Origin: Acutalibacteraceae bacterium
GTDB taxonomy: Bacteria; Bacillota; Clostridia; Oscillospirales; Acutalibacteraceae
Assembly: GCA_045598225.1 (NCBI GenBank)
Contig: JAZLLP010000006.1
Span: 22,230-86,229 of the forward strand
Direction of reading: 5' to 3'
Length of the DNA: 64,000 nucleotides
Of this stretch, positions 6,243 through 38,131 are shown piece after piece (the stretch's first letter is position 1; the number at the start of each line of letters is the position of its first letter). Under the pieces are notes generated by a model. That model worked only from the letters and a program-made list of their open reading frames with translations, made no database searches and was not told the origin of the DNA. Both the position numbers and the translations under genes were made by a program.

Positions 6243-6286
6243 AAAAGGATTTCGGAAAAATTTTCCTGTTTTCCGAAATCCTTTTT
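6243..6286 (-). terminator. intrinsic terminator downstream of beta-helix gene
   Basis: AAAGGATTTCGGAAAA ... TTTTCCGAAATCCTTT inverted repeat flanked by A/T runs. Confidence 0.7.
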
Positions 6287-6311
6287 TAGTTTTTTGATAA
6301 TTATAAATTAC

Positions 6312-17884: not shown

Positions 17885-17974
17885 TGCGCAAGATAGTTTC
17901 TATAAAAAACACCGATAATGCGCAATATAGTTTGTGTAAAAAACACCCATAATACGCAATTTAATATAGTGTGT
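17879..17974 (+). repeat. 34-bp tandem direct repeat, about 2.8 copies
   Basis: CCGATAATGCGCAAGATAGTTTCTATAAAAAACA / CCGATAATGCGCAATATAGTTTGTGTAAAAAACA / CCCATAATACGCAATTTAATATAGTGTG. The first copy overlaps the stop codon of the upstream gene. Confidence 0.85.
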
Positions 17975-18004
17975 TCCTATATATTCATATTATACATAAT
18001 ACAT

Positions 18005-18085
18005 AAAAAAATAAACCGCCCTCGTCTAAAGGTGCGGTTTATTTCAAACTCATATTTAGGCTAACCGTCTATCGGTTGCCCTTCT
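18005..18085 (-). ncRNA. small RNA paralog, copy 2 (orphan; only about 25 nt of toxin 3' remnant upstream)
   Basis: Minus-strand TTGACA (18118-18113), TGcTATAAT (-10 at 18097-18092). Same AACCGATAGACGGTTAGCCTAAATA core as copy 1. Terminator AAACCGC/GCGGTTT plus U7. End coordinates are estimated. Confidence 0.6.
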
Positions 18086-18121
18086 TTTATTATTATAGCA
18101 TATCTTTGTCATTGTCAATCT

Positions 18122-18156
18122 GACAACCGGCAACCGACAACCGGCAACCGGCAACT
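18122..18156 (-). repeat. tandem heptanucleotide array, 5 units, abutting the glyA stop and the sRNA -35
   Basis: Minus-strand reading TG[A GTTGCC GGTTGCC GGTTGTC GGTTGCC GGTTGTC] AGATTGACA. The first unit overlaps the last base of the glyA TGA. Confidence 0.9.
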
Positions 18157-19406
18157 CAATAAAGCGGATATTTTTCACAAATCTTCGTAACTTCGTCACG
18201 GATGTAATCTGCGCTGTTGTCGAAATCAACCGCCGCAAGTTTTATGAGTTCGGCAATTTTAACCATTTCGTGTGCGCCGAATCCTCTTGTTGTGACTGCC
18301 GCCGTACCTACTCTTATTCCGCTTGTAACGAACGGTTTTTCCTGTTCGTTCGGAATGGAGTTTTTGTTTACGGTGATGTAAACTTCATCAAGTCTGTGTT
18401 CAAGTTCTTTGCCTGTAATACCGAGTGAACGCAGGTCAAGAAGAATAAGGTGGTTGTCCGAGCCGCCCGATACCATATCAACACCCTGTGCGGCAAAAGC
18501 ATTTTCAAACGCTTTGCAGTTTGAAATTATTTTTTTGCCGTATTCTTTAAATTCGGGTTTAAGCGCTTCACCGAAGCAGACCGCCTTTGCCGCAACAATG
18601 TGCATTAAAGGACCGCCCTGTATGCCGGGGAATATTGATTTGTCGATTTTTTTGGCAAGTTCCTCATTATTTGTAAGAATTATGCCGCCTCTCGGACCGC
18701 GCAAAGTTTTGTGAGTTGTTGAAGTAACAACGTCTGCATACGGGAACGGTGACGGATGAACTCCTGAAGCAACAAGTCCCGCTATATGCGCCATATCGAC
18801 CATCATAAGAGCACCGACTTTGTCGGCAACTTCTTTGATTCTCTTAAAATCAATTATTCTCGGATATGCCGAAGCACCTGCAACAATAAGTTTAGGTTTA
18901 CATTCAAGCGCCTTTTTTTCAAGAGCGTCATAATCAAGTAAACCGTTTGTGTCAACGCCGTAACTTTCAAAATTAAAATAACTGCCGCTTACGTTTACGG
19001 GTGAGCCGTGAGTAAGATGACCGCCGTCTGCAAGGCTCATACCGAGAACTGTGTCGCCGGGTTTGAGAAGTGCGAAATATACGGCAAAATTTGCCTGTGA
19101 GCCTGAATGAGGCTGAACGTTTGCGAAATTGCAATTGAAAAGTTTTTTAACTCTTTCACGTGCGATTTCTTCCGCAATATCAACACATTCGCAACCGCCG
19201 TAGTAACGGTGTGCGGGATAGCCTTCGGCATATTTATTTGTGAGTATGCTGCCCGAAGCCGCCATAACAGCGGGGGAAGCATAGTTTTCACTTGCTATGA
19301 GTTCAATGTTTCTGCTTTGCCTTGCAAACTCTTTTGAAACGCTTTCAAAGAGTTCGGGGTCGTAATTTTCAAGCAGAGAAAAATCAGTATTTATAAATTC
19401 GTTCAT
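18156..19406 (-). CDS. glyA: serine hydroxymethyltransferase
   Basis: 416 aa. Motifs [20 protein letters not shown]-Lys region [12 protein letters not shown] and SGGSDNHL. Confidence 0.95.
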
Positions 19407-24815: not shown

Positions 24816-25026
24816 CAGCATTCCCCTGATTTTCAAAATATAATATGCCTTTCCCACCAATAAGTCAGTTTAATGTTTTAAATGTAAAATGTCAATAGAA
24901 AATGTAAAATATGTGTATGTTTTTTTTAATTCCATTTGCTCTCTCCGTTGAAAAAACATTTTTTATATGGTATGATTTTATCATTAAAAAAAGATAAGGT
25001 CAACGGATATTGAGAAAGGGATTTTT

Positions 25027-25422
25027 ATGAAAATTTTTATTTGCCTTGATGATGACAACGGAATGATGTTCAACAACCGCCGTCAAAGCCGTGACGGAAA
25101 AGTCGTTGAAGATGTTATAAAAACAGTTGGCGAGAACATACTTTTTACTGACGAATATTCAAAAAATCTGTTTAAAAATTTTGAAAACGTCACCGTTACA
25201 GACGAATTTCAGGATGACGGTTTTTTCTTTGTCGAAAACCGTGATATTGAAGAATTTTGCGAAAAAATATCGGTTTTGACCGTTTACAGGTGGAACAGAA
25301 AATATCCGAATGATTTTGCGCTTTCGTTCAATATTGAGGACAAAGGATTTAAACTTTTTGAAACTTCGGAATTTGAAGGCAATTCGCACGAAAAAATAAC
25401 AAAAGAGGTATGGGTAAAATGA
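25027..25422 (+). CDS. hypothetical protein (DHFR-like N-terminus)
   Basis: 131 aa with good RBS (GAAAGGGA). MKIFICLDDDNGMMFNNRRQSRD resembles RibD_C/DHFR-fold proteins; function not supported further. Confidence 0.6.
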   Translation: MKIFICLDDDNGMMFNNRRQSRDGKVVEDVIKTVGENILFTDEYSKNLFKNFENVTVTDEFQDDGFFFVENRDIEEFCEKISVLTVYRWNRKYPNDFALSFNIEDKGFKLFETSEFEGNSHEKITKEVWVK

Positions 25423-25850
25423 ACCGCACTTTAAGAATATTTTCTTTAGTTTTGTCGCTTCTGCTTCTTCTCGGCATATTTACTTCGTGCGACAAACCGA
25501 CAACTTTGCCGTATTACGCTCCCGAAGACACCGGCAAAAACGGCGAACTCACAACGGTTCGGGAAACTTCCGCAACAGGTGAATTTTCACTTTCGTCAAT
25601 TCCCGAATACAGCGGCAAACCGTACGTTACAGTCAATAACAACACTCCGTTTTTTAAAGAAAATGAAATAACAAAAAAATCTTATGAATACTACGCTCCT
25701 CTTGATTCGCTCCTCAGGTGCGGTGTAACTGTTGCCTGCATAGGCAAAGATTTGATGCCGACTGAAAAAAGAGGCGAAATCGGCTCGGTAAAACCGACGG
25801 GGTGGTGCAACGAAAAATATGATTTTATTGACGGGCATTATTTATACAAC
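25419..25850 (+). pseudogene. 5' part of a disrupted secreted DNA/RNA non-specific endonuclease (EndA-like lipoprotein)
   Basis: ATGA-coupled to the upstream gene. Lipobox LLLLGIFTSC. The frame reads ...VKPTGWCNEKYDFIDGHYLYN up to 25850, then enters element sequence (IWNI stop). It continues in frame at 36596. Confidence 0.85.
25845..25850. repeat. left copy of flanking direct repeat TACAAC (ATACAAC if extended 1 nt)
   Basis: The identical hexamer recurs at 36590-36595 immediately outside the right inverted repeat. Confidence 0.75.
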
Positions 25851-25873
25851 ATATGGAACATTTAGAAAGTGTT
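25851..25873. repeat. left terminal inverted repeat
   Basis: ATATGGAACATTTAGAAAGTGTT against the reverse complement of 36567-36589, TTATGGAACATTTTAAAAGTGTC: 19 of 23 identical. Confidence 0.8.
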
Positions 25874-25936
25874 AAATATTTAGCTAATAATAGGTGAACA
25901 CAATTGACTTAATTTTATTAATCAAGGAGATAGAAT

Positions 25937-27118
25937 ATGAATAATAAAACATTGAGAGTATGCTCACTATTATTGAGTTTGCTCTTACTTTTTTCTATAT
26001 ATGGTTGTGTTGGGGATTTTTCTGTAAATGTACAAGAACAACAGACAACAGAATCAATTACTAATACAACAGAATATTCAGGCGAGACCCCAATATATCA
26101 TGATGATAATTTCAAACTCCATATGCTTGATGTTGGACAGGGACTTTCTTTGCTTATAGAAAGTAACGGACATTTTATGATTTATGACGGCGGAGGAAGA
26201 GAGGCATCATCTTTTGTGGTAAGTTATTTAAAAAAATATGGTGTTAAATCTTTGGATTATATGTTTGTTTCCCACTATGATGAAGACCATATAAATGGTT
26301 TGGTCGGTGTACTACACACTGTTAAGTGTAGTGAGGTTGTTTGTCCGGATTATACTACAGATTCAAATGTATACAATTCATTCGTTAATGCAATGGCTGA
26401 TTCAAAAGCAATAATTAACCATCCTTTTATTGGAGATGAATTCAAGCTCGGAGATGCAAACATCCTGGTTGTTGGCCCTACAGACTATAATAATGACAAC
26501 GATAATGACCAATCTGTATCTATTAAAATAACCTGCGGTAATTATTCATATCTTGTTTGCGGCGATGCAACAACGGAAAGTGAATCCGAAATGCTCGGTA
26601 CAGGAATGAATCTTGATTGTGATGTGTATGTTGTAAGCCATCATGGAAGTTCGTCATCGAGCGGAATGTCGTTTTTGCGTACAATCACTCCGGAGTGTTC
26701 GCTGATTAGCAGCGGAAAGGATAATAAGTACGGTCACCCAACAGAGAAAACACTTTCATCTTTAGAAGAAGTAAATAGCGAAATATTCAGAACGGATGAA
26801 GAAGGAACAATAATTATAGAATCTGATGGCGATGACCTTGTAATAAGTGCGAATGACATTTTACTTTATTATAAAGAGAATCCTAATGATAGTGTAACAA
26901 GGGCATCGATTAACGCAAAAAATGAAAATAAAACAGAGACTGAGGTTTCTAATGAATCTCAGCAACAATACATCCTTAATACAAATTCCAAAAAATTTCA
27001 TTACCCTGATTGTCCATCAGTTGGAAAAATGAGTGAAAAAAATAAAAGGTCCGTAATTTCTTCACGAGATGAATTGCTTAATCAAGGATACGAGCCGTGC
27101 AATTACTGTAACAGTTAA
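25937..27118 (+). CDS. secreted MBL-fold hydrolase (ComEC C-terminal-like) with C-terminal Cys4 zinc-ribbon tail
   Basis: 393 aa, RBS AAGGAG. Lipobox-like LLFSIYGC. MLDVGQGLS ... SHYDEDH metallo-beta-lactamase motifs. Tail YILNTNSKKFHYPDCPSV...GYEPCNYC. Confidence 0.8.
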   Translation: MNNKTLRVCSLLLSLLLLFSIYGCVGDFSVNVQEQQTTESITNTTEYSGETPIYHDDNFKLHMLDVGQGLSLLIESNGHFMIYDGGGREASSFVVSYLKKYGVKSLDYMFVSHYDEDHINGLVGVLHTVKCSEVVCPDYTTDSNVYNSFVNAMADSKAIINHPFIGDEFKLGDANILVVGPTDYNNDNDNDQSVSIKITCGNYSYLVCGDATTESESEMLGTGMNLDCDVYVVSHHGSSSSSGMSFLRTITPECSLISSGKDNKYGHPTEKTLSSLEEVNSEIFRTDEEGTIIIESDGDDLVISANDILLYYKENPNDSVTRASINAKNENKTETEVSNESQQQYILNTNSKKFHYPDCPSVGKMSEKNKRSVISSRDELLNQGYEPCNYCNS

Positions 27119-27123
27119 TATAA

Positions 27124-27167
27124 GAGGCTATGACGAAATGAAAAGTTTCATCATAGCCTCGTTTTTT
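27124..27167. terminator. intrinsic terminator
   Basis: GAGGCTATGA ... TCATAGCCTC followed by GTTTTTT. Confidence 0.75.
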
Positions 27168-27175
27168 ATTTGTGA

Positions 27176-27385
27176 TTATGAAATTGTAATTTTTACCCGC
27201 TCTATTAATTCTATTTGATAATTCAGAGTATCATGAATCCGCTCCGCTGGCACACCCTTTTCGAGTAAAGTTTTTATAAAATCTTCTTTGTTATGCATAG
27301 AAACCTCCTCGGAAACTTTCTTAGTTACTTCTTTAATGCCTTTTTCAGTACCTTCTTTGATGGTTCCTTCGGAATCTTCTACCAA
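27176..27385 (-). CDS. small K/E-rich protein, paralog of 27647-28000 (start uncertain, TTG; possibly frameshifted)
   Basis: 69 aa. The tail FIKTLLEKGVPAERIHDTLNYQIELIERV aligns with IIALLDAGVSTELICDILECPAELVNEV of the divergent neighbour. An upstream ATG (MSKIMEDFG) is in another frame. Confidence 0.4.
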   Translation of the reverse strand: MVEDSEGTIKEGTEKGIKEVTKKVSEEVSMHNKEDFIKTLLEKGVPAERIHDTLNYQIELIERVKITIS

Positions 27386-27646
27386 AGTCTTCCATAATTT
27401 TACTCATAACATTATAAACTTTCATAAATTAAATTGTAAGAACATTTTTCCTCCGCCATATTATTATCTCCTACAGGGTTTGTTGTTATTTGCTAAATAA
27501 AACGGAGTTACCTCATAGGCAACTCCAAAATAAGCAGTATATCCTTACCGTTATTTATAAGACATATATCTTGCACTATTTACTTTAATGTCATATAATT
27601 ATGATTGTTACTTATATGCGAAAAAATAGAAAGGAGAACTTTGTTT

Positions 27647-28000
27647 ATGAGTGAAACCGAATCAAAAAAGTACTATGAAAACATGACTAACGAAATCTAT
27701 AAGGCTATTCACAAAAATATTGAAGAGAAACTTACAGATGAACTGATTGACGAGGTCGTTAAAGAAGCTACCAAACGGTTTGCTGATGACCTATCAAAGA
27801 AGCTTAGCAAGGAATTCACGGAACGAATCAAAAAAGATGTCACAGAGAACGTAACCCGAGAAATTAAGGAAAAGGAAATAATAGCTTTGCTTGATGCTGG
27901 AGTTTCAACCGAGCTGATTTGCGATATTCTCGAATGTCCGGCAGAACTGGTCAATGAAGTTCGGAACGCTCCGCCCACTTCGTTCGAGTGGATAGAATAA
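27647..28000 (+). CDS. small K/E-rich helical protein with HTH-like tail
   Basis: 117 aa from MSETESKKYY (RBS AAAGGAG). Charged heptad-like region, then LLDAGVSTELICDILECPAELVNEV. Confidence 0.6.
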   Translation: MSETESKKYYENMTNEIYKAIHKNIEEKLTDELIDEVVKEATKRFADDLSKKLSKEFTERIKKDVTENVTREIKEKEIIALLDAGVSTELICDILECPAELVNEVRNAPPTSFEWIE

Positions 28001-28014
28001 GTGATGAATATTAA

Positions 28015-28053
28015 AACAACGAGGACTTAATGTGATGAGTCCTCGTTGTTTTG
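28015..28053 (+). terminator. intrinsic terminator
   Basis: AACAACGAGGACT ... AGTCCTCGTTGTT followed by TTG. Confidence 0.7.
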
Positions 28054-28408
28054 CTCTTTTATCCACTATATTAGAGGGCGTGTCATATTTTTATCTCGCT
28101 GATTTAACAAAGAATTATTTAGTGTATTTTTTCCATCTCCATTATATTGTAATTACCCAAATTTATTCATAGTAGTTTTTTATTCTCTCAAAACATTTAT
28201 ATAGCTCTTGCGGATTTCATATTATATTTATAAGTGTGATATCAGGAGTAAAGATATTTAGATTTTATAACCCCTAAAGCGTCTTTAAAATGGTATTTCT
28301 ATAACCAGTATATAAAAAATTAAGTTATATTTATGTAACTTGCATGATAAAAAATAATAAAACGGTTGAAAAAAGAAAAAAATAATGTTAGAATAGGCGG
28401 TGCAAAAT

Positions 28409-28948
28409 ATGAAAGGGCTATCAGAAATGGAAAAACAATTAATTGAGCAAAAATCGCAAGAAATAATCAATAAATATAATTCTGATTCATCTAATGTTGA
28501 CATTGTAAAAATTGCAAAACAAATGGGATTTGTTGTTGGTGATGCAGTACTGTCGGAAGATTATGACGGTTTTATTCTTGTTAATAATAGTATTAAAAAC
28601 CTGCGTTCGCAAAAAGGTGTTAAGTTAATAGGTGTTAATCCAAGACTAACTCCCGAGGAGAAGAATTTTGTAATTGCTCACGAACTTGGCCATTACATTT
28701 TAGATAATGGTGAAAATGAAAGTATTTTTGCTCATAGAGAACATAAAAAGGGAAAAGATGATAAAGAAAACGATATTGATTATTTTGCTGCAAATGTTTT
28801 GATGCCTAAAGAACTCTTCGAAAAAAGATATAGAGCACTTAAGCCTCTATACAATGGTAATAATGACGGTTTAGTAGAGGATTTAGCCCGTTACTTTATG
28901 GTTGAATGTGACTGTGTAAAACGTAGGGTTGGTGAAGTAATTGGATAA
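28409..28948 (+). CDS. ImmA/IrrE family (COG2856) zinc metalloprotease
   Basis: About 179 aa. HEXXH as IAHELGHYIL, with downstream E...DYFAANVLMP typical of this family. Confidence 0.8.
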   Translation: MKGLSEMEKQLIEQKSQEIINKYNSDSSNVDIVKIAKQMGFVVGDAVLSEDYDGFILVNNSIKNLRSQKGVKLIGVNPRLTPEEKNFVIAHELGHYILDNGENESIFAHREHKKGKDDKENDIDYFAANVLMPKELFEKRYRALKPLYNGNNDGLVEDLARYFMVECDCVKRRVGEVIG

Positions 28949-29462
28949 ATCTGCTAATACAGACAAATATGAGTCTATATATCAAGACCTTTGTGATACA
29001 CCAATTTTATCTTCATATGAAAATAAAATTCAATTATCAAATAAAGACCCTTTTCAAACACAAGAACAAGAATTAAGAGACCAATCTATTACAATATTAT
29101 TAAGGGAATATGTTTGCTTTTTTAAAGACAGAAAAGAAGAAAACAAACAAGGTCGCAAGGAAATAAAATATTTTTGTTTTTTATCTGTGATTCTTTTGCT
29201 CGTTATAATCTTTAGTATTGTATCTCTGACTATTATACATAATGTTAAAGATATTTCGGTAGTGGCCGTTATCATTTCTTCCATTATAGGACTGTTTGGT
29301 TCCATATTTGGACTTATTAAATATGTCGCTATGTATTCATTCCCTGTAGAAGATGAGAAATATGTAACAGATATCGTTAAAGCGATTCAAGAAAATGATT
29401 TTAAGCATAAACACGAAAACTTCAAAATCTCCCAAGCATTAAAAAAGGATAATCAAGATTAA
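28941..29462 (+). CDS. hypothetical 2-TM membrane protein, translationally coupled to the ImmA-like gene
   Basis: 173 aa. TTG start overlaps the last codons of the upstream gene (8-nt overlap). Two hydrophobic helices (FCFLSVILLLVIIFSIVSLTII and VVAVIISSIIGLFGSIFGLI). No other in-frame Met near the start. Confidence 0.55.
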   Translation: MDKSANTDKYESIYQDLCDTPILSSYENKIQLSNKDPFQTQEQELRDQSITILLREYVCFFKDRKEENKQGRKEIKYFCFLSVILLLVIIFSIVSLTIIHNVKDISVVAVIISSIIGLFGSIFGLIKYVAMYSFPVEDEKYVTDIVKAIQENDFKHKHENFKISQALKKDNQD

Positions 29463-29476
29463 ATTTCTAAATTCTG

Positions 29477-29513
29477 ATGAACTGTCTGTTAAAGCAGACG
29501 GTTCATCTTTTTG
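29477..29513 (+). terminator. intrinsic terminator
   Basis: GATGAACTGTCTG ... CAGACGGTTCATC followed by TTTTT. Confidence 0.75.
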
Positions 29514-29772
29514 ATATACCTATCATATCAGAAAAAGACTGTGTTATTATAAAAATAATACTATTTGTTTTTCAACAATCAATAAATATATAGCATTGCT
29601 ATAATAAAAACCAATTTTCATGCGATTATAGGATGATAAAAAATATTATTTTACTATTGACATAATGTGAGTTATTGTATAAAATGAAATTGTATATAAA
29701 ATTATTTAATTTTATATAAAATTGTTTTACAAGAATACTTTAACATCACGCCGTGTTTAAGGAAGTGACAGT

Positions 29773-29961
29773 GTGTCAAGAGCGAAAAAGGATGGAGAAG
29801 CTATAAGTTTTTACATGAGTAAAGATGTTGCAAATCTTCTTCGCCAATATGCAGATGAAAAAGGTCAGACCCTTACAACAGCAGTAGAGAGATTGATATT
29901 AAAACAAATCGAAGTTGAAAGAATGTCTGAGAAACCAGAAAAACAAAAAGAATTGTATTAA
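29773..29961 (+). CDS. ribbon-helix-helix (CopG/Arc-like) DNA-binding protein
   Basis: 62 aa, GTG start after AAGGAAG. ISFYMSKDVANLLRQYADEKGQTLTTAVERLI fits the beta-strand/helix/helix RHH pattern. It sits directly upstream of the recombinase genes. Confidence 0.6.
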   Translation: MSRAKKDGEAISFYMSKDVANLLRQYADEKGQTLTTAVERLILKQIEVERMSEKPEKQKELY

Positions 29962-30167
29962 AAATACTCAACAATTAAATATATACCGCCAAATAGGACG
30001 TGCAATTAACAATCAACAAACGCCTAAATGCGGATGCTTATGATAATCAATGATTATTATCTGACTAACTTTGATGACGATTCTCTATGCATCTAATTCA
30101 TCGTACGCAGCATTCCGTATTTGTGCGTTTGTTTTATTTGTTGTTGTATTGTTTTATGGAGGAATAT

Positions 30168-31487
30168 ATGATAAAGGTTTCAGAGGTACGATGCTACGAC
30201 GGTATAAGATATCATGTAACATTCGCAAACAATAAAAAAATAGAAACATCCAATACAATAAACTATCGTACTGCTATCGTAGACAAAGATAATAAAAAAT
30301 ACTACATTTTATATTCATCAAAAATGGTTCCAATAAGTCCTGTCTTTGATTATATCAATTATAATATCGCAGATGCTTCCGATAATACAAAAGAAAAAAC
30401 ATTGTCAGCATTGCGATTTCTATATTCATTTTCAGAAATGATAGGCAAAGGAATAGACAAGTTTGTGCCAATGGATGTAATCGATTTAAGACGCTTTTTA
30501 TTAGGATATAACTATACTGGAACATCAATTTGTTTTGAGAATTTAACGGAGCGTTCCAACAAAACAATTAATGGCTATTTCAGTATTTACAGAAGCTATT
30601 TGAATTTTCTCAATGTAAAAGATTCTCCTTTTTTCAATAGCAAAAAGTCTTATCGTGTAATCGATTCGATAAGAAAAGAAACAGTTAAGTATGATTATAA
30701 CGTTAATATGTCTGCAGCATCCATTGAAGTGCCGGATTATGTATCAGTTAAAGATTTCAAAAAGATGTTAGATGATGTAAGAAAAAGACATCAAATTCGT
30801 GACGAATGTATTATTCGGTTAATGTATGAAAGCGGGTTGAGAATAGGTGAGGTCTTGGGGTTAACTAACGAAGACGTAGTAATACAAAACTATACCCCTA
30901 TCGTATTAATACGCAACAGGATTACCGATAAACCATATCAAAAAGCAAAGACCTGCATGGAAATAAAAAGACAATCCGACTACAAAAAGGCGATGAAGTA
31001 TATTGATTCAGGATATCAAATTGTGACAATATCCCAAGAACTATATGAACTTATCGGTAAGTATATAGATGAAGAACATTCAAAGCAAAGAATCGAACAC
31101 AAGCAAAACTATCAAAGTACAGCTATTACGGATTCAATAGATTCAGATGACGAAAATTTTTATATTTTTCTTAATGGCCTTGGCAAACCATTATCTCAAC
31201 GCATATGGAATATACAAATGCGTGAAATATTTAATAACATCGGTTTAGTTGTCGACAAAGGAAAGAAAGAACATAATCTCAATCATAGATTGAGACATGG
31301 CTTTGCGATGTTTAATGTGAAATATATGAAGAAACAACCATTGGAATTAAAACTACTATTACGCCATAAATCGCTTGCATCGGTTTCATGTTATTATAAA
31401 CCAACAAGAGAGGACCAGATTCAATTAAAAGGTGATTTCATAAAAAGTTTATACGACGTGATTCTGGAGCTGAAAGGGGAAGAGTAG
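30168..31487 (+). CDS. tyrosine recombinase A of trio
   Basis: Start moved to MIKVSEVRCYDG (RBS GGAGG). Catalytic pattern GLRIGE (Arg), HRLRHG (His-x-x-Arg-His), LLRHKSLASVSCYY (His...Tyr). Confidence 0.85.
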   Translation: MIKVSEVRCYDGIRYHVTFANNKKIETSNTINYRTAIVDKDNKKYYILYSSKMVPISPVFDYINYNIADASDNTKEKTLSALRFLYSFSEMIGKGIDKFVPMDVIDLRRFLLGYNYTGTSICFENLTERSNKTINGYFSIYRSYLNFLNVKDSPFFNSKKSYRVIDSIRKETVKYDYNVNMSAASIEVPDYVSVKDFKKMLDDVRKRHQIRDECIIRLMYESGLRIGEVLGLTNEDVVIQNYTPIVLIRNRITDKPYQKAKTCMEIKRQSDYKKAMKYIDSGYQIVTISQELYELIGKYIDEEHSKQRIEHKQNYQSTAITDSIDSDDENFYIFLNGLGKPLSQRIWNIQMREIFNNIGLVVDKGKKEHNLNHRLRHGFAMFNVKYMKKQPLELKLLLRHKSLASVSCYYKPTREDQIQLKGDFIKSLYDVILELKGEE

Positions 31488-34133
31488 ATGCCGAGAAAAG
31501 GTGCCGTAATAAAACTTGATTATAAAGATTTTAAGGATGAACAAATCGCTTCTGTCGTTGAAGAAATTCTTGTGAGTTCAGACAAGGTAATTAGAACCAG
31601 GGGCGTGAGTGCGAACAATCAAGCTAAAAAAATAATAATTAATGTTTGTAAAAATGCTTTAAGCGAGCTTTCAGTAAATGATTTTACAAGTGAAAATATT
31701 GCCAATCTTTTTAAAAACAAAACAACTAAAGAATGTCTTTACATACAAAGAGTACTTATCTCTTTACTGAAAAAGAAAATTATACCCGATGAAAATCTTT
31801 ATAAAATATTACCGTTTAAAAAAAGACTTTTAAAAATTTTCTACCAAAGCGATATTCCTATTATTTTATCAGCTCCGTATTATGATTTTCTGGTAATAAA
31901 TGATGTTTGTTTATTTGAAAATTTGTTCTTTTTTCAACCAGAATTAAAGGGAATTACACCGGGGTGGTTGAAAAATATTCTAATCGATTACGCTGAATAC
32001 TTGCGTGTGAATCAGCAGGGGACTCCGAAAAGCAACTATGCTTTGCTGACAAAAATGCAACGAATAATAACCGATTTATTCACTGAAATAAAAGATATTA
32101 ACGATATCAACAGAGATTGGCTTTTCAAATCTTTGACAGATTTCTCGTATATAAGTGGCGGAATGAAAATAGTTAATGACTTGTTGATAAAAATATCCGA
32201 AAAACAAAAAATAAAAGATAAATGGATATTAAAAATCCTTGCAGAACAACCTTATGTAACTGGTAATTATCAAGTATCTGAGTACCTTAAAATATTAGCT
32301 TGCGAAAACCCTGACTGTTTTTCCGTGAAAGAAAGTAAAAACAACGGATTTTCGGGTCTCTATATTGATGCTCCATACAATTCGGATTTATTTGTTACGC
32401 TAACTGAATATTTTGATTGTTCTGTATATCAATGCAAAGAATTCACCGATATAATGGGTAACTTTTATAAATCTTTGAATGATGATTCTATTTATTCGGC
32501 AGACGATATATCTTACAAATCTTTAGAGAGTTGTTCAAAATTCTTTTTATCTCGTAAAGGCAACCGCAATTCATATAGTACAATACTTGCAAATATTTTT
32601 TCGTTTTTTTACTTTGAGAAAAGATATAATATTTTCTCCCGCGATAAAATTAATCCCGAAATAATAACAAAACCCGGCATTATTAAATATATTGTTGATG
32701 GATATTGTGCTATAAAATACAATCCCTTTGAAGATGTGCCGATTTACGATAAATGGATTCTGATATTTGACCTCAATATTGAATCGCAAACAGTAATCAA
32801 GCCTGCAAATATTGAATTATTTGATTTTACAAAAATAAAGAATAAAACACTAAAAAATGCCTGTAAATTCTATATCTGGAAGGCTAACAGTACTATTAGC
32901 ACAAAGGCCGTGAGATTTTCACAATATATCGAATTTTTAAATTATATAAATGATTTGCAAACAGGCGGAGAGATATCTATATATTATTCTTCGAACCAAT
33001 CAACCGATAATGTGATTACCGCAACAGAAATAATGTCATATGATTTTTGGGTAAAAACACAGCATAAAACCGAATATTCTGCTAATCAAGTAAAAAGTAA
33101 TGTATTCGCATTCTTGCATTTTTTAGATGAAAATAAAGTGTTAAATGTTGATGAATGGGCATGGCAGTTTATTAAAGTGCAAAATCCCAAAAGTGGTAAC
33201 CCAAAATCAATTCCGGACAATGAATTGCAATTACTCAGCAAAATACTCAAAGAACGCGGTGAAAACAATATACGAGACAAAATCATATATTATATTTTTT
33301 GGATGTTAATTAATACTGAATTCAGACTTACAACCGTCCTTAATTTGAAAAGAGATTGCATACAAGAAGAAATAAAATCCGGACAATATTCGATAAAAAC
33401 AAAAGTTAAAACAAGTAAAAACGAATATGTTACCATACCAATATCAATTGAGGTAAAAAAACATGTTGACGAGATGATAAAAATAACCGAGCCCTTAAGC
33501 CAATCTCTTCGAGGAACCTTAAAGGGAAATTTTTTGTGTCTAATTCCCTGTAAAGGAACTAAAAAAGCCCATGTTCTTTCTAATGAAATATTCAGAAAGC
33601 ACATTGAATCAGCTTGCAAAGAGGCAAACATTTCTAAATATTCTGCAGCAAACATAAGAGACACCCATATGACAAAAGCCGAGCAATACAAAATACGAAA
33701 ACATCTTACTGATGCAGAACAAAACACGTTAACAGGACACCGTTCTTCTTATACAACAGATAAATTTTATGTTGACATGCCTATTGATGATTTGCTATCC
33801 GCTACATATGGAGTGATTATAGGAAATGTTGATATTGCGGGTAATATTGTTTCCGAAGCCTCTCCGGTAGTATCAGTAAAAAACGAAGTGTCTAATAATT
33901 GTGGATACTGTTCCGCCCATAGTTGTAATGAGTTTTCATATTTGGACTGTCTTATGTGTAAAAACTTTGTCACAACACCGTCCAGAATTGTTTTCTTTGA
34001 GGACCAAATAAAAATAATTGACGAAAAAATATTAAAAACATCCATTCCCCATGATAAGGAAGACCTTGTAAACATTAAACGATTACTGGTTTCATACAAA
34101 GAAAAAATCATTCAATTTAAGGAGACTAATTGA
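31488..34133 (+). CDS. tyrosine recombinase B of trio (881 aa, long N-terminal extension, C-terminal Cys cluster)
   Basis: TAGATG junction with the upstream gene. EFRLTTVLNLKRDC (Arg), NIRDTHMT, LTGHRSSYTTDKFY (His...Tyr). Cys cluster CGYCSAHSCNEFSYLDCLMC. Confidence 0.8.
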   Translation: MPRKGAVIKLDYKDFKDEQIASVVEEILVSSDKVIRTRGVSANNQAKKIIINVCKNALSELSVNDFTSENIANLFKNKTTKECLYIQRVLISLLKKKIIPDENLYKILPFKKRLLKIFYQSDIPIILSAPYYDFLVINDVCLFENLFFFQPELKGITPGWLKNILIDYAEYLRVNQQGTPKSNYALLTKMQRIITDLFTEIKDINDINRDWLFKSLTDFSYISGGMKIVNDLLIKISEKQKIKDKWILKILAEQPYVTGNYQVSEYLKILACENPDCFSVKESKNNGFSGLYIDAPYNSDLFVTLTEYFDCSVYQCKEFTDIMGNFYKSLNDDSIYSADDISYKSLESCSKFFLSRKGNRNSYSTILANIFSFFYFEKRYNIFSRDKINPEIITKPGIIKYIVDGYCAIKYNPFEDVPIYDKWILIFDLNIESQTVIKPANIELFDFTKIKNKTLKNACKFYIWKANSTISTKAVRFSQYIEFLNYINDLQTGGEISIYYSSNQSTDNVITATEIMSYDFWVKTQHKTEYSANQVKSNVFAFLHFLDENKVLNVDEWAWQFIKVQNPKSGNPKSIPDNELQLLSKILKERGENNIRDKIIYYIFWMLINTEFRLTTVLNLKRDCIQEEIKSGQYSIKTKVKTSKNEYVTIPISIEVKKHVDEMIKITEPLSQSLRGTLKGNFLCLIPCKGTKKAHVLSNEIFRKHIESACKEANISKYSAANIRDTHMTKAEQYKIRKHLTDAEQNTLTGHRSSYTTDKFYVDMPIDDLLSATYGVIIGNVDIAGNIVSEASPVVSVKNEVSNNCGYCSAHSCNEFSYLDCLMCKNFVTTPSRIVFFEDQIKIIDEKILKTSIPHDKEDLVNIKRLLVSYKEKIIQFKETN

Positions 34134-34134
34134 T

Positions 34135-35943
34135 ATGGGTATCGAAAATGCTAAATATATACATGAGTTGGATTTAGAATACACTCCTTCATTTCAAGGA
34201 AATATTTTCAACCAAGATAACGGATTATTAGCTACGATAAAAAAGTCCAATATTCTACCCTTTAAAGAGAAAAAAATATATTATTCGGATGATGTTTGGT
34301 ATTTGGGTGAATCAAATTATGCAAATACATCATTGCTTTTTACGAAGTGTCCCGACGTTTTTCGAGATGTCCTGAAAGATTATACCATTATCACGTTTAT
34401 TCAAACAGATATCAGATTAATAACATTAAAAAATCATGTCAGTGTGTTGTCACGCTTTTTTACTTTTCTATATGAAGACAATATAATTGATATTCAAACT
34501 ATGTCTATAAGTGATGTAAAAATTATTTTAAATAAATGGGAATATTCTGATTCGTTGTGTATGAACTTCATTTATTGTTTTAAAAATTTTCTATCATTTT
34601 ACAATACATTTATTCGTAAATATTTCGGTGATGAGTGGTTTGCGTTTTTGAACGAACAAAATTATGTTAAAAATTCCCAAAAGACCCCCAATATTCCTGA
34701 CGAGTATTTTAATAAATTAATATTAAAAACTATGAACATCGCTCGTGATAAAACCGCAGATACTTTAAATCGAGGGATTGCTTGCATGATACTGATTTTA
34801 TCACAGACAGGAATAAGGGTGGGAGAATTGGTTGAATTGAAAATAAATTCGCTTAAAGAAAAAGAAATAAGTAGTGGTCAAACAACAAGCTTTTTAATTT
34901 ATGAAACCACAAAAAGAACTCATGGTAATAGTTCTCCTGAAAAAGTAATTACATACGCAAATGAAATTGTTGTGTTCGCATACAAAACACTTGTAGAATT
35001 GTATGATGAATTGAGAAAACAGCACAAGTCAGAGTATTTGTTCCCTGAGGTCGCCTCGGTTTTTAACAAGGTGGATGTAGGCCGTTTTTATTGTTTGCTT
35101 GATGATTTCTTTTACTCGTTAAATAGTGATGATTTCCGTACGGTTTATTACACCAAAATTGAGAACCCGCCGCAACCTCTTCACAAGAAAGGTAGGGGAA
35201 AAGATGTAATATATATATCTCGTCCTAATTGTCATCAGTTCAGGGTTCATGCGTGTACGGAATTATATAATAAGGGTGTTCCGATAGAATATATCCAACG
35301 ATATATGTCTCATTTGACTTCGGAAACCACATCAGCATATATTAGACCACAAAACACCCCACAAGAAGATATGGCCGCGTCAATAGAAATTCTCAAAGGC
35401 ATTGTTAATGGTGACCTAACACCTATCGGAACTGATAAAAAACGATTGATAAACGGAATTCAGCAATTTATTAATGACAACCATTTCAACATTGAAAAAG
35501 ATATGGACGCCATAGTAAATAAGCTTAGTGAAAAAATACCAATAAGAATTAAGGCCGGTGGTGCTTGTATTAAATCTTCTCTTTTCCGCGAATGTTCTGT
35601 CGATGCCAAAACGAATGAATTTTACTGTGCGTACGGGGTTTGTCCTAACTTATTCACATTTTATTATACCATTGATGTGACATATGAAAAGTGTAAAACA
35701 CTACAAGATGCAATAATAATAAATGAGAATCGTGGCTGTGAAAAGCAAGTTCAGAAAAATAAAAACATGCTAAAAACCATAGCTCAAAAACAATTATTAC
35801 CCGAATTAGAAGAATTGAAACGACTTCTGGATGAAAAAGGAAGAGACTGGATTTTAGAAAAACATCCGGAATTATTTTATATTCTAAATAATTATTCTAC
35901 CATCATTAAGGAGGCAAGCGAATGGATATCGAATTATGCGTAA
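34135..35943 (+). CDS. tyrosine recombinase C of trio (602 aa, C-terminal Cys cluster)
   Basis: RBS AAGGAG, start 1 nt after the upstream stop. TGIRVGELVEL (Arg), HQFRVHACT (His-x-x-Arg-x-His), MSHLTSETTSAYI (His...Tyr). GGACIKSSLFRECS...FYCAYGVC. Confidence 0.8.
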   Translation: MGIENAKYIHELDLEYTPSFQGNIFNQDNGLLATIKKSNILPFKEKKIYYSDDVWYLGESNYANTSLLFTKCPDVFRDVLKDYTIITFIQTDIRLITLKNHVSVLSRFFTFLYEDNIIDIQTMSISDVKIILNKWEYSDSLCMNFIYCFKNFLSFYNTFIRKYFGDEWFAFLNEQNYVKNSQKTPNIPDEYFNKLILKTMNIARDKTADTLNRGIACMILILSQTGIRVGELVELKINSLKEKEISSGQTTSFLIYETTKRTHGNSSPEKVITYANEIVVFAYKTLVELYDELRKQHKSEYLFPEVASVFNKVDVGRFYCLLDDFFYSLNSDDFRTVYYTKIENPPQPLHKKGRGKDVIYISRPNCHQFRVHACTELYNKGVPIEYIQRYMSHLTSETTSAYIRPQNTPQEDMAASIEILKGIVNGDLTPIGTDKKRLINGIQQFINDNHFNIEKDMDAIVNKLSEKIPIRIKAGGACIKSSLFRECSVDAKTNEFYCAYGVCPNLFTFYYTIDVTYEKCKTLQDAIIINENRGCEKQVQKNKNMLKTIAQKQLLPELEELKRLLDEKGRDWILEKHPELFYILNNYSTIIKEASEWISNYA

Positions 35944-36449
35944 TCGAAACAGTTGAGGCTTTAGATGAAAATTATGAATTACTTCCGGAAAATGTGAAAA
36001 AACAATTAAAATCAATAGAAGAAATAATCTCAGGCAAGGAAAGTCTTCTTGGTCAATGTAAGGATAATCTCAAACAATCAGATTTTTCAATTAAATCGAT
36101 TTCAAAAGAATTAGGCTGTTCGCGTACAACATTATACAATACACCGTTATTCAAAAAATATATCGAATACCGCAGCGAAGTACTGGAAAATAATAACCCG
36201 ATTCAACAAGTGAAGATATCGCAGAATAAAATAAAAGAGTTAAATGATGTCATAAAACAGATGGAATTGCGTGATGTCGAAATTGAAAACCTAAAGCACG
36301 AGATTAAAATACTTAATAACAAACTTAAAGAAGCGACCGAAGTTAATGAAAATTTGAGAATATCCGTCAATGAATATAAAGCACAACTCAGTAAAGATTC
36401 TGAAAAATCTCATAAAAATACATGCTTATTTTATCCAAAAAATAAGTGA
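35922..36449 (+). CDS. HTH plus coiled-coil accessory protein (TnpC-like by position)
   Basis: 175 aa, RBS AAGGAGG, overlapping recombinase C by 22 nt. ISKELGCSRTTLYN HTH-like segment, then a heptad-rich coiled coil. Confidence 0.65.
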   Translation: MDIELCVIETVEALDENYELLPENVKKQLKSIEEIISGKESLLGQCKDNLKQSDFSIKSISKELGCSRTTLYNTPLFKKYIEYRSEVLENNNPIQQVKISQNKIKELNDVIKQMELRDVEIENLKHEIKILNNKLKEATEVNENLRISVNEYKAQLSKDSEKSHKNTCLFYPKNK

Positions 36450-36566
36450 ACACTTTTTAAAAATACATACTTAATTTGTACGCTTTTATTTTTAAATTAA
36501 GTTCATTTCGCCCAAAAACAATAAAAGTTAAATAATGTCAGTATTTATGCAGTTTCGCAGCGTTTG

Positions 36567-36589
36567 GACACTTTTAAAATGTTCCATAA
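36567..36589. repeat. right terminal inverted repeat
   Basis: GACACTTTTAAAATGTTCCATAA; its reverse complement matches 25851-25873 at 19 of 23 positions. Confidence 0.8.
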
Positions 36590-36595
36590 TACAAC
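36590..36595. repeat. right copy of flanking direct repeat TACAAC
   Basis: Identical to 25845-25850. In the rejoined gene one copy encodes the Tyr-Asn codons before RCHLIG. Confidence 0.75.
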
Positions 36596-37114
36596 CGCTG
36601 TCACCTTATAGGCTACCAACTTTCGGGCGAAAACGCAAACGAAAAAAATCTTATTACCGGCACAAGATATATGAACGTTGACGGTATGCTTCCTTTTGAA
36701 AATATGGTTGCCGATTATGTAAAAGAAACGGATAATCACGTTATGTACCGTGTAACACCCGTGTTTGACGGGTACAATCTTCTTGCTTCGGGCGTTCTTA
36801 TGGAAGCGTATTCGGTTGAAGATGACGGTGACGGCGTTCTTTTCTGCGTTTTTTGCTACAACGTTCAACCGGGTGTAAAAATAGATTATAAAACCGGTGA
36901 AAATGCAATTGACGGTAATTCATTAACCACCGCAAATGACAGTTCATCTTATAAAAACAGCTCATATATTCTTAACACAAAATCAAAAAAAATACATAAA
37001 CCGACTTGTTCTTCCGTAAATACAATAAATGAAGAAAACAAAGAAGAGTACAAAGGAAACATAGGCAATTTGCTCAATAAAGGTTACTCAAAATGCGGAA
37101 GTTGTTTTAAGTGA
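36596..37114 (+). pseudogene. 3' part of the disrupted EndA-like nuclease gene
   Basis: The frame is open from 36596: RCHLIGYQLSGENANEKNLITGTRYMNVDGMLPFENMVADYVKE... The track ORF begins only at the internal Met at 36671. C-terminal tail YILNTKSKKIHKPTCSSV...GYSKCGSC. Confidence 0.85.
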
Positions 37115-37118
37115 GGTC

Positions 37119-37174
37119 AGTTGCCGGTTGCTAGTTGCCGGTTGTTAGTTGCTAGTTGTTAGTTGCTGGTGGCA
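37119..37174 (+). repeat. tandem heptanucleotide array, 7-8 units
   Basis: Four nt after the nuclease TGA: AGTTGCC GGTTGCT AGTTGCC GGTTGTT AGTTGCT AGTTGTT AGTTGCT GGTGGCA. Confidence 0.9.
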
Positions 37175-37208
37175 GATATTAAAAAAAGAATAACAAAACG
37201 ATAATATA

Positions 37209-37236
37209 AGGGGCTGTGATTTTTTCACAGTCCCCT
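37209..37236. terminator. bidirectional intrinsic terminator
   Basis: AGGGGCTGTGA-TTTTT-TCACAGTCCCCT, between the array and the convergent XRE gene. Confidence 0.75.
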
Positions 37237-37237
37237 G

Positions 37238-37480
37238 TTATTTTATTTCCTGCTCAAGATTTCTGAATGTATCTGTGTCAAAAAATTCAGTTATTGAAAT
37301 ATCCAATCCGTCGCATATTTTCTTAATGGTTGTGATGCTTGGATTTTTGCTTTGATTATAAATGATTGACTTAACTGTTGTATAAGGGATTCCGGAGATA
37401 GTCGCAAGTCTGCAAAAGTTAATGTTACGTTCATTACACAGTTCTTCTATACGCATTTTAGTTGCTTCAACTATTGTCAT
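37238..37480 (-). CDS. XRE-family HTH transcriptional regulator
   Basis: Start at MTIVEATKMRIEELC (RBS AGGAGTG). HTH_3 pattern LATISGIPYTTVKSIIYNQSKNPSITTIKKICDGLDISITEFF. Confidence 0.8.
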   Translation of the reverse strand: MTIVEATKMRIEELCNERNINFCRLATISGIPYTTVKSIIYNQSKNPSITTIKKICDGLDISITEFFDTDTFRNLEQEIK

Positions 37481-37548
37481 CCATATCACTCCTGACAAAA
37501 TTATGATACTGATTTTGCAGGAATGATATAGACTACAAATTATACGAA

Positions 37549-37716
37549 TTACGATATATAGTCTTTTTTGACTTTTGCTGCAATCAACGCAATAAACAAT
37601 TCAGGATCAATATTATATCCCGCCATCTCTAAAGCCTTGCGAATTTCTGTTTCAACTTCTTCAGAAGTAGTGTTATTCTCCTTTGCTATTTGATTTAATA
37701 TTTTTTGATAACTCAT
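37549..37716 (-). CDS. small hypothetical protein (Spo0A C-terminal-like, phage/ICE-type)
   Basis: 55 aa from MSYQKILNQIAKENNTTSEEVETEIRKALEMAG (RBS AAAGGAGG). Family resemblance is from memory only. Confidence 0.5.
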   Translation of the reverse strand: MSYQKILNQIAKENNTTSEEVETEIRKALEMAGYNIDPELFIALIAAKVKKDYIS

Positions 37717-37780
37717 AATTTTGCCTCCTTTCAACAACATAGTATAATATATAGTCTATCAAAATTTGTCGAAAGGTGCG

Positions 37781-37853
37781 ATTAAAAAAATAAATTTGTT
37801 GTGATAATCAGTATTGTAGGTTTTTCGTTGATCGTGAGCATAAAAAGAAATAA
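37781..37853 (+). pseudogene. decayed copy of the type I toxin gene
   Basis: Aligns with 13796-13885 (GGTGCgATTaaa against GGTGCaATGgtt; ...TCGTTGAT...AAAAAGAAATAA(A)CCGCCC). The start codon is ATT and the frame is broken by TGA/TAG. An alternative GTG ORF at 37801-37908 (MIISIVGFSLIVSIKRNNRP...) keeps a hydrophobic segment. Confidence 0.4.
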
Positions 37854-37929
37854 CCGCCCCTCCGTCCAAAGAGTGCGGTTAAATCTTATCACATTTCTAA
37901 TGGCGTAACCGTCTATCGGTTGCCTTTTT
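37842..37929 (-). ncRNA. small RNA paralog, copy 3
   Basis: Minus-strand CTGACA -35, 16-nt spacer, TGcTATGAT -10 (37941-37936). Core GGCAACCGATAGACGGTTACGCC. Terminator AACCGC/GCGGTT plus U-run. More diverged than copies 1 and 2. Confidence 0.5.
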
Positions 37930-37966
37930 GTTATTATCATAGCATATCTTTTTCGTTTGTCAGTCT

Positions 37967-38127
37967 GCCAACCTGCAACTAACAACTAACAACTGGCAAC
38001 TGGCAACTAGCAACTAACAACTAACAACTAACAACTAGCAACCGGCAACTAACAACTGGCAACCGGCAACTAACAACTGGCAACTAACAACCGGCAACTG
38101 ACAACTGCCAACCGGCAACTGGCAACT
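37967..38127 (-). repeat. tandem heptanucleotide array, 23 units in perfect 7-nt register
   Basis: Minus-strand reading after the lysK TGA-TTTT: AGTTGCC AGTTGCC GGTTGGC AGTTGTC ... AGTTGCA GGTTGGC. 161 nt is exactly 23 x 7 with no indel, and it runs into the sRNA -35. Confidence 0.95.
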
Positions 38128-38131
38128 AAAA

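Follow-up and report, generated by a model that had tools for sequence, protein, structure and literature searches.

A predicted Tn554-superfamily module of three tyrosine recombinases and a DUF6262-like protein in a 10.7-kb insertion within a nuclease gene of an Acutalibacteraceae bacterium

Three adjacent, translationally coupled tyrosine recombinase genes of very unequal size, followed by a small fourth gene, raise the question of what such a set of enzymes does together. We analyzed this arrangement in a stretch of 64,000 nucleotides (nt) from an Acutalibacteraceae bacterium (GenBank assembly GCA_045598225.1, contig JAZLLP010000006.1, positions 22,230 to 86,229), referred to here as the window. 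The four tightly coupled genes, named A, B, C and D, span window positions 30168-36449 and encode proteins of 439, 881, 602 and 175 amino acids (aa). Elements with several recombinases (Tn554, SE, GInt and GMT) move resistance, defence and virulence genes. An earlier note, made from the sequence alone, had read the four genes as encoding one hetero-oligomeric machine; its observation is correct and non-random, and its interpretation is partly supported and incomplete. What it missed is that these genes provide the mobility functions of a 10.7-kb element with defined ends, which lies within a nuclease gene. We consider it likely that A to D form the transposition/integration module of this element, which is by sequence a member of the Tn554 superfamily, namely a little-described Clostridia relative with one extra large recombinase.

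30168-31487, forward strand: A, canonical tyrosine recombinase, TnpA(Tn554)-like, 439 aa
31488-34133, forward strand: B, recombinase paralogue, 881 aa
34135-35943, forward strand: C, large tyrosine recombinase, TnpB(Tn554)-like, 602 aa
35922-36449, forward strand: D, helix-turn-helix (HTH) and coiled-coil protein, TnpC/DUF6262-like, 175 aa

A check of the open reading frames (ORFs) bore out those listed before, together with their junctions. The TAG of A is followed immediately by the ATG of B (TAGATG, within GAGTAGATGCC), B and C are joined by TGA-t-ATG (AATTGATATGGG), and C and D overlap by 22 nt, with an AAGGAGG for D located within C. Position 30168 is the likelier start of A than an alternative upstream ATG at 30087, because GGAGG lies 6 nt before the ATG at 30168 and all homologues of A begin with MI.I.E at that same point. 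Of 13 tabulated loci, the window among them, 7 have a C/D overlap of exactly 22 nt, and neighbouring module genes are closely spaced or overlapping in all of them. The arrangement is not due to chance, since identical genes, order and tight coupling were found in every other locus examined. No protein name is attached to the window's own A, B, C or D in the protein collection.

Ends and empty site of the element

The ends of the element were located by scanning the window with the end sequence of a related element on an Anaerocolumna sp. chromosome (locus L017, described below). Features of the element and of the gene that it interrupts are as follows.

25410-25850, forward strand: 5' part of a split lipoprotein DNA/RNA non-specific endonuclease gene, ending ...YLYN
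25845-25850, no strand: left 6-bp target duplication, TACAAC
25851-36589, forward strand: whole mobile element, 10,739 bp
25851-25876, forward strand: left terminal inverted repeat, ATATGGAACATTTAGAAAGTGTTAAA
36564-36589, forward strand: right terminal inverted repeat, TTGGACACTTTTAAAATGTTCCATAA, 115 bp past the stop codon of D
36590-36595, no strand: right 6-bp target duplication, TACAAC
36590-37114, forward strand: 3' part of the split nuclease gene, YNRCHLIGYQLSGEN... to the stop codon

The two 26-bp repeats are imperfect, matching as reverse complements at 21 of 26 positions, and manual comparison of the right repeat with the right end of the Anaerocolumna element gave about 21 of 26 identical positions. 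At each end, a tip of sequence TATG(G/A) lies beside the duplicated six bases and a TGTnCAA-like box is found about 13 nt inward; the same two-box layout was seen at the ends of the elements in loci L017 and L009. The G+C content of the element is approximately 30 to 31%, compared to approximately 40% around it.

The gene fragment to the right of D corresponds to the 3' two-fifths of a DNA/RNA non-specific endonuclease gene, and the ORF at 25410-25865, previously without a family, was identified as its missing 5' part. Joining 25410-25850 to 36596-37114 yields a lipoprotein of 319 aa, in which the Endonuclea_NS_2 profile spans the junction (profile positions 8-128 of 132, E 1.1e-21), compared to 25.7 bits for the fragment alone. 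The insertion point falls in the codons of the nuclease catalytic motif, ...YLYN|RCHLIGYQ....

Direct evidence for insertion came from a syntenic metagenome contig (L023), which was reached through cluster mates of the neighbouring class-I lysyl-tRNA synthetase (LysRS); exact look-ups of B and of the LysRS itself returned no contigs. In L023 the element is absent, the nuclease orthologue is intact at 331 aa, and TACAAC is present once. Window positions 24921-25850 and 36590-37129 map to adjacent positions of L023 that overlap by exactly six bases, TACAAC. This empty site defines the element as positions 25851-36589, 10,739 bp, with a 6-bp duplication, and demonstrates an insertion relative to the genome of a close relative. 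The clear ends and the empty site together define the recombination sites.

Other approaches to the ends were less useful. A MAFFT alignment of non-coding flanks across loci and a naive inverted-repeat search were both uninformative, and searches for tRNA genes and Rfam features found none involved. A left end at 29982, about 186 bp upstream of A, had been considered by analogy with other loci and was rejected on the basis of the repeat at 25851 and the empty site. The truncated nuclease gene as cargo, or as a sign of rearrangement, was likewise rejected by the 25851 repeat beside TACAAC and the empty site.

Recombinases and the small fourth protein

A and C match the Pfam family Phage_integrase with E-values of 3.2e-13 and 5.5e-14, respectively, while Pfam and NCBIfam scans of B returned no Phage_integrase match and a weak NCBIfam tyrosine-recombinase match. 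In A, the catalytic set R225, K261, H373, R376, H400 and Y409 is invariant or nearly so among 15 homologues. In C, R228, K260, R370 and H393 are present in 16 of 16 homologues and Y402 in 15, as are four Cys residues (478, 487, 498 and 503).

The family of B proved to be large. An exhaustive profile search of 1.84 billion representative proteins returned 638 clusters, 420 of them below 1e-30, with lengths grouped near 740 or near 880 aa. A word-indexed search had given two or three relatives; the view that B is almost unique was rejected in light of the 638 clusters from the exhaustive hidden Markov model (HMM) search, its apparent rarity being an artefact. Residue counts and AlphaFold input were based on an alignment of 129 members of this set. 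R613, K641 and R724 are each conserved in 128 of 129 sequences, Y761 in 127 and H751 in 125. The Cys residues C808, C813, C821 and C824 are each present in 129/129, C805 in 123/129, and H855 in 122/129. The Cys clusters of B and C thus rank among the most conserved positions, which fits metal binding.

The profile of B aligned with XerA (PDB 5hxy, E 1.4e-3), and in comparisons with XerA and Tn1549 Int the conserved residues fell on the catalytic Arg, Arg, His and Tyr; a profile built from 4 B sequences had given no PDB match by sequence. With the 129-sequence alignment, AlphaFold produced a model of B with a predicted local distance difference test score (pLDDT) of 91.7 and a predicted template modelling score of 0.76, and a run with 3 sequences (pLDDT 45) was not used. 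In Foldseek, XerH, Cre, lambda Int and Tn1549 Int matched the model over 310 to 350 columns, with E-values of 2e-6 to 1e-3 and target TM-scores of 0.5 to 0.68. The predicted domain order begins with a helical N-terminal extension of about 415 to 440 aa, followed by core-binding and catalytic domains (about 440-775), the Cys cluster (805-824) and a long C-terminal helical hairpin. By profile alignment, B appears to be a diverged paralogue of C (hhalign 98.5%, E 2.8e-15, 357 columns) that keeps the Arg-Lys-Arg-His-Tyr set.

A tyrosine-recombinase fold is therefore predicted for all three proteins, and each has the catalytic Arg, Lys, Arg, His and Tyr in place. The Arg, His-x-x-Arg, His and Tyr motifs that the earlier note had quoted coincide with true catalytic positions in the homologue alignments, and none of the three ORFs is a degenerate copy, the catalytic Tyr and Arg being present in each. 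The Cys clusters that it pointed out in B and C are conserved (four Cys in 129/129 for B, 15/16 for C), and its description of the fourth gene as an HTH/coiled-coil protein also stood. The N-terminal region of B, put at about 550 aa without a recognizable motif, is shorter: about 415 to 440 aa, with the fold starting near residue 440.

Profile comparisons placed the module closest to Tn554. The A family matched staphylococcal Tn554-type TnpA over almost its whole length (98.3%, E 2.6e-14, 335 columns), and the C family matched Tn554-type TnpB (98.3%, E 2.6e-14, 359 columns). Tn554 appears from these comparisons to be the nearest known family, and the module is best described as encoding a TnpA-like protein, a TnpB-like paralogue, a TnpB-like protein and a TnpC-like protein, in that order.

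A second, compact four-gene module was found on Clostridium botulinum plasmid pCDC5900 (NZ_KJ776580.1, positions 2873-7372 of locus L026). Its genes overlap and encode 369, 490, 509 and 142 aa, annotated in RefSeq as integrases and a DUF6262 protein only. The second protein matched B with an E-value of 1.4e-23, Cys cluster included, and the third matched C with 1.8e-27; the approximately 415-aa N-terminal extension of B and part of the N-terminus of C are lacking. The sequence matches argue that the pCDC5900 module is a true homologue of the whole A-D module in short form. No paper on this module was found.

D has weak HTH matches only in Pfam, with no DUF6262 match there. Its HTH motif, ..CSRTTLYN.., contains residues S67, R68, T70 and Y72, which are invariant among 15 homologues. 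Comparison of D with the DUF6262 protein of pCDC5900 gave 95.7% and an E-value of 1e-8, and TnpC of Tn554 belongs to Pfam DUF6262. D may be classed by sequence as a TnpC/DUF6262-like HTH and coiled-coil protein, linked to that family through the compact pCDC5900 module.

Related loci and cargo

Co-occurrence was assessed by applying HMMs of the four families to all ORFs of the fetched loci. The order A-B-C-D was kept in 18 of 18 further loci (17 distinct places), partial modules being found only at contig ends, so that the four genes occur together outside this genome and are inherited as one block. These loci comprise Enterococcus faecium megaplasmids, three metagenome contigs (L003, L004 and L005) and 14 loci that were obtained by scanning 185,579 species genomes. 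The scan yielded Ruminococcus albus 8, Vallitalea, Blautia, Acetobacterium, Anaerocolumna, Terrisporobacter, Mobilitalea, Anaerobium and a Clostridium, as well as metagenome-assembled genomes (MAGs) of Peptostreptococcaceae, Oscillospiraceae, Lachnospiraceae, one Bacillaceae and one Anaerobiospirillum. A search of 2.9 million viral contigs gave no relative of B, which indicates that the element is not carried by phages. Nor did literature searches turn up any paper that describes this four-gene family of Clostridia.

The best-defined relative is the 11,046-bp element at positions 7971-19016 of L017, from the complete Anaerocolumna sp. chromosome NZ_CP121445.1, which splits the host nadE. Its left flank holds the NAD_synthase part and its right flank CN_hydrolase profile positions 1-144, the frames meeting at ...GIEIC|EDLW...; the ends are imperfect inverted repeats with GCAGAT on both sides. 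The cargo includes a complete nadE (16922-18928, minus strand) that is 55 to 64% identical to the split host copy, so by sequence this element appears to carry a spare copy of the gene it destroys. The element in L009 has the same end structure, with a length of 8,120 bp and a GCTTTA duplication. Each element thus has its own 6-bp core on both sides. The locus in the Mobilitalea MAG (L011, 6857-15387) adjoins a cca gene without its head domain, and a complete cca lies directly after D.

The E. faecium megaplasmid copy (L001, 4961-11850) is represented by 9 records and encodes proteins of 449, 855, 625 and 147 aa with the same 22-nt C/D overlap; B, C and D are labelled hypothetical in RefSeq. 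It adjoins the last 130 N6_Mtase profile positions (the C-terminal third of hsdM), near hsdS and hsdR. Its left end was not found, the left flank being a fragment of a type ISP enzyme rather than the 5' part of hsdM. This copy is probably decaying, because the Cys clusters of both B and C are lost. Taken together, members of the family split conserved genes, namely nadE, a nuclease gene and, probably, cca and hsdM, and some carry spare copies.

Several further observations concern individual loci. One element occurs in both L003 and L004, from two samples, where its left flanks differ, and in this metagenomic lineage a 126-aa VRR_NUC nuclease gene lies between A and B (L003 2657-3037, L004 1852-2232). 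The Vallitalea maricola contig L008 (1-9380) begins and ends at inverted repeats, which suggests that this genome holds several copies of the element and that its assembly broke at repeat boundaries.

The remaining genes of the window element all lie upstream of A.

25937-27118, forward strand: metallo-beta-lactamase (MBL)-fold protein with a C-terminal Cys-rich domain (Pfam Lactamase_B, E 3.5e-15)
27605-28000, forward strand: 131-aa charged helical protein, sub-threshold Pfam matches only
28400-28948, forward strand: ImmA/IrrE (M78) metallopeptidase (Pfam Peptidase_M78, E 3.6e-17)
28941-29462, forward strand: 173-aa predicted membrane protein with a hydrophobic stretch, overlapping the peptidase gene
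29773-29961, forward strand: ribbon-helix-helix (CopG-like) protein (Pfam RHH_7, E 1.1e-6), just 5' of the recombinase operon

PADLOC matched the MBL-fold protein to the MBL domains of LmuA, DRT and Avs1a, and the M78 peptidase, a possible regulator, to a capP-like model (E 1.2e-19). The 173-aa membrane protein has no Pfam family above threshold. The MBL protein (26921-27109) and the target nuclease (36917-37105) have in common a C-terminal Cys-rich domain of about 60 aa with 41% identity and the pattern ..KK.H.P.C..V......N....GY..C..C.

Downstream of the element, heptamers of the form (GTTGCYR)n are arrayed in tandem at 37116-37173, and the inverse complement of this array occupies 37955-38130. 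The arrays begin at the stop codons of the nuclease gene and the LysRS gene, which are convergent (TTAAGTGA / TCACTTAA), and flank about 0.8 kb with two minus-strand genes, an HTH_26 gene (37238-37498) and a 63-aa ORF (37549-37740). The segment 37116-37564 has the opposite orientation in L023 (93% identity), and by its sequence the heptamer-flanked segment looks invertible or recombining. This inversion is independent of the element, since L023 lacks the element yet has the arrays.

Mechanism, rival explanations and known systems

A mechanism may be outlined by analogy with Tn554, SE and GInt elements and canonical tyrosine recombination. The recombinases would assemble on the two ends, at the tip box TATGG beside the crossover and the TGTnCAA-like box about 13 nt in, and cut with a 6-bp stagger, excising the element as a circle that carries the 6-bp overlap at its junction. 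The circle junction would read ...TGTTCCATAA-TACAAC-ATATGGAACA..., and the restored nuclease gene ...TATTTATACAACCGCTGT.... Re-insertion at a target with a matching 6-bp core would regenerate the repeat on both sides. The small, Xer-like A would probably carry out one strand-exchange pair and a large recombinase the other, while the paralogues B and C may discriminate between the non-identical ends or between the half-sites of element and target. The Cys clusters would probably coordinate zinc and mediate contacts with DNA or between subunits, and D would probably bind and bend subterminal DNA as an accessory or directionality factor. That A to D act as one machine, with D as an accessory factor, is suggested only by analogy, and a physical hetero-oligomer of A, B and C, zinc binding by the Cys clusters and directionality control by D are inferences.

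A more far-reaching proposal is that B is a third active recombinase, giving three active recombinases and a DUF6262 protein per synaptic complex, and that these elements are a widespread Clostridia class homing into conserved catalytic-motif codons, sometimes with a spare gene copy. We put this forward tentatively and would not be surprised to see it fail. To our knowledge, no characterized system uses three different active recombinases and a DUF6262 protein in one synaptic complex.

Some results weigh against a mobile element driven by A to D. No circular form, excision product or second insertion of the exact element was seen, and its proteins are singletons at 90% identity; these findings leave current activity unproven. 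The operon also varies in position: it occupies the end towards which it reads, with cargo upstream of A, in the window element and, probably, on the E. faecium megaplasmids, and in L008, L009 and L017 it occupies the opposite end, with cargo downstream of D. The copy in the Peptostreptococcaceae MAG (L010), which is 6.4 kb long without cargo, was rejected as a simple insertion, since its flanks do not fit: the first ~48 codons of a Y-family polymerase gene (dinB) on the left (8199-8360) and a complete dinB, 75% identical to that fragment, on the right (14622-15860). The similarity of D to Tn554-type TnpC is weak when compared directly, with a probability of 28% only. Finally, the His of the HxxR motif is variable in both B and C; in B it is the sole canonical residue missing, and an Asn one residue later is conserved in 121 of 129 sequences. 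The chemistry of B and C may therefore differ from that of canonical enzymes.

The absence of this His, at a position that varies across the 129 sequences, also bears on a rival reading in which B is a non-catalytic architectural subunit with a recombinase fold, like Tfp or GinC, leaving the cutting to A and C. In the known four-gene systems exactly one member is inactive (PMC10214605, PMC5385486), and the missing Phage_integrase match and large extra N-terminal domain of B would suit such a role. However, C, homologous to the catalytic TnpB, also lacks a conserved HxxR His, the catalytic residues of B align with those of XerA and Tn1549 Int, and the retention of R613, K641, R724, H751 and Y761 in 125 to 128 of 129 diverse family members would be difficult to account for if B were not catalytic; this conservation makes the reading doubtful. 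Less likely again is that the window holds two tandem elements with a common att site, a minimal operon-only element and an older cargo-only element running from 25851 to ~29980, mobilised or fossilised together. The distances lend this some appeal, as the left end lies 209 to 243 bp upstream of A in L008, L009 and L017, where cargo follows D, compared to 4.3 kb in the window; the right end directly follows D in the window, and sequences resembling its right repeat could be read by eye 90 to 170 bp after D in several other loci. Against it, the best internal left-end candidate, near 29982, matches the right repeat at only about 9 of 26 positions by manual count, no internal junction of a right end and a left end was seen, and the outer repeats match at 21 of 26 positions with a perfect 6-bp duplication. 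The E. faecium copy, moreover, has D near its right-hand junction too, and at least 1.1 kb separates A from the next flanking gene upstream.

It strikes us as very unlikely that each recombinase does work of its own (for example integration, resolution of dimers, or inversion of a switch close by) and that the genes are merely clustered. A segment 0.5 kb downstream, between the heptamer arrays (37116-38130), is indeed inverted relative to L023, which points to some inversion activity nearby, but L023 has the heptamer arrays without the element, so that the inversion is independent of A to D. The unbroken gene order and translational coupling, kept in distant genera and between differing flanks, argue for one function, and the joint requirement for the clustered genes in GInt and SE elements also speaks against separate roles. 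There is next to no prospect that the locus is a RIT element or a GMT island, although it has three adjacent recombinase genes and A matches the NCBIfam model GmtY weakly. That match reached 43 bits, far under the cut-off of 340, and no other Gmt model in NCBIfam (GmtZ, GmtX) matched any of A to D. RIT elements are said, following Ricker et al. in 2013, to consist of three small recombinases without a fourth gene. The three are RitA, RitB and RitC (PMC8138268). Here the recombinases have 439, 881 and 602 aa, the two of 600 to 880 aa carry Cys clusters, a DUF6262-like gene follows, and Pfam and NCBIfam gave no Rit-type family match. Membership in either group was rejected on sizes, the fourth gene, and sub-threshold or missing family matches. 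We retain the reading of A to D as the transposition/integration module of a Tn554-superfamily element.

With Tn554 the element has in common a TnpA-type and a TnpB-type recombinase (A and C), a fourth gene in the position of tnpC (putative sequence equivalence of D to TnpC/DUF6262 being drawn through pCDC5900), a Cys/His-rich stretch after the catalytic domain of TnpB, genes that overlap, junctions with a 6-bp core and insertion in a gene, radC in the case of Tn554. Tn554 has two recombinases and the present family three, with B between the TnpA-like and TnpB-like genes in all loci. Tn554 is said, from Murphy's work, to use att554 (radC) without target duplication, whereas the window element has clear 26-bp inverted repeats, an identical TACAAC on both sides and a nuclease gene as its target. 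The hosts differ as well, Staphylococcus and Enterococcus for the Tn554 family and mainly Clostridia here. For Tn554, all three products are required for transposition according to an entry in the reference list of PMC8138268 (Bastos and Murphy 1988).

The four-gene layout itself equals the core of SEs, strand-biased circularizing integrative elements (PMC10214605), in which intA-tfp-intB-srap follow the same order by protein type as A-B-C-D. SEs also have imperfect terminal inverted repeats with a 6-bp core, small size and no conjugation genes, and their operon lies at one end between the inverted repeats; in the window it is at the end distal relative to its reading direction. Mobility of SEs needs intA, intB and srap, and tfp-srap blocks, the Tfp and Srap families being what their authors searched by, have been reported from Gammaproteobacteria only (PMC10214605). 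SEs are further characterized by copy-out behaviour that leaves no empty donor site and by strand-biased junctions. The RHRY residues are reported to be missing from Tfp; in B, R, R, H and Y are each kept in 125 or more of 129 sequences. The two 6-bp flanks of an SE differ (footprint and fingerprint), while those of the window element are identical; an own 6-bp core on both sides of each element fits site-specific recombination with a matching overlap better than the differing flanks of SEs. Using SE-Pda04Ya311 from pAQU1 as reference, the B family gave an E-value of 0.042 and a probability of 1% against Tfp, and the D family an E-value of 0.39 against Srap, both from a profile compared with a single sequence and hence of limited sensitivity. 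Comparison with IntA was not significant, and IntB matched C over 51 columns only (E 5e-5), which indicates no specific relationship.

GInt elements (Bardaji et al. 2017, PMC5385486) are likewise built around an operon of three recombinase-fold genes and a small fourth one. They enter conserved genes by site-specific insertion, and their variable cargo includes restriction-modification and defence genes. Like SEs, they are mobile in experiments. All four gin genes are required for excision and integration (PMC5385486), and the strict co-inheritance of A to D is consistent with such a requirement here. The atypical member of a GInt is the third gene, GinC, which lacks the first Arg, whereas here it is the second, with that Arg kept. 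Protein sizes are 401, 437, 543 and 132 aa in the Escherichia coli Sakai GInt used as reference, compared to 439, 881, 602 and 175 aa here, and GInt ends are imperfect direct repeats of 10 to 17 nt rather than inverted repeats. A matched GinA (E 9e-9), the sole significant GInt match; B against GinC and C against GinB were not significant with the E. coli Sakai GInt. As judged by these comparisons, the layout appears to equal the SE core and to resemble GInt by architecture, no specific sequence relationship having been detected except that of A and GinA. Two Firmicutes GInts are listed, in Roseburia inulinivorans (ROSEINA2194_02362, ACFY01000093) and Eubacterium cylindroides (EC1_RS04255, NC_021019), both in helicase genes (PMC5385486), and these may belong to the A-D family.

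The type E and F6 toxin cassettes of C. botulinum (Carter et al. 2016, PMC4824171) offer a further parallel, as they are inserted within a coding gene, have an identical 6-bp repeat (TTCATC) at both ends and come with an intact spare copy of the split gene (rarA and topB, respectively), comparable to nadE in L017 and cca in L011. This pattern of split gene and spare copy has so far been reported for clostridial toxin cassettes without a mechanism. There is no evidence that these cassettes encode or use the A-D module, and in PLSDB the only Clostridium plasmid with a match to A, B or C was pCDC5900. The "three integrase genes" mentioned in PMC4824171 were considered as this module and set aside, as that phrase describes a 3.7-kb insertion unrelated to it. 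The resemblance is no more than a lead; if B is active and the elements home as tentatively proposed above, the family would be a candidate for the unexplained mobility of the bont/E (rarA) and bont/F6 (topB) cassettes.

The existence of named relatives, Tn554 by sequence and SE and GInt by architecture, makes the module less unprecedented than the earlier note implied. The A-D family appears to form a sequence-level bridge from the two-recombinase Tn554 to the four-gene layout of SE and GInt elements, presenting that layout in Firmicutes with an extra member that still looks catalytic.

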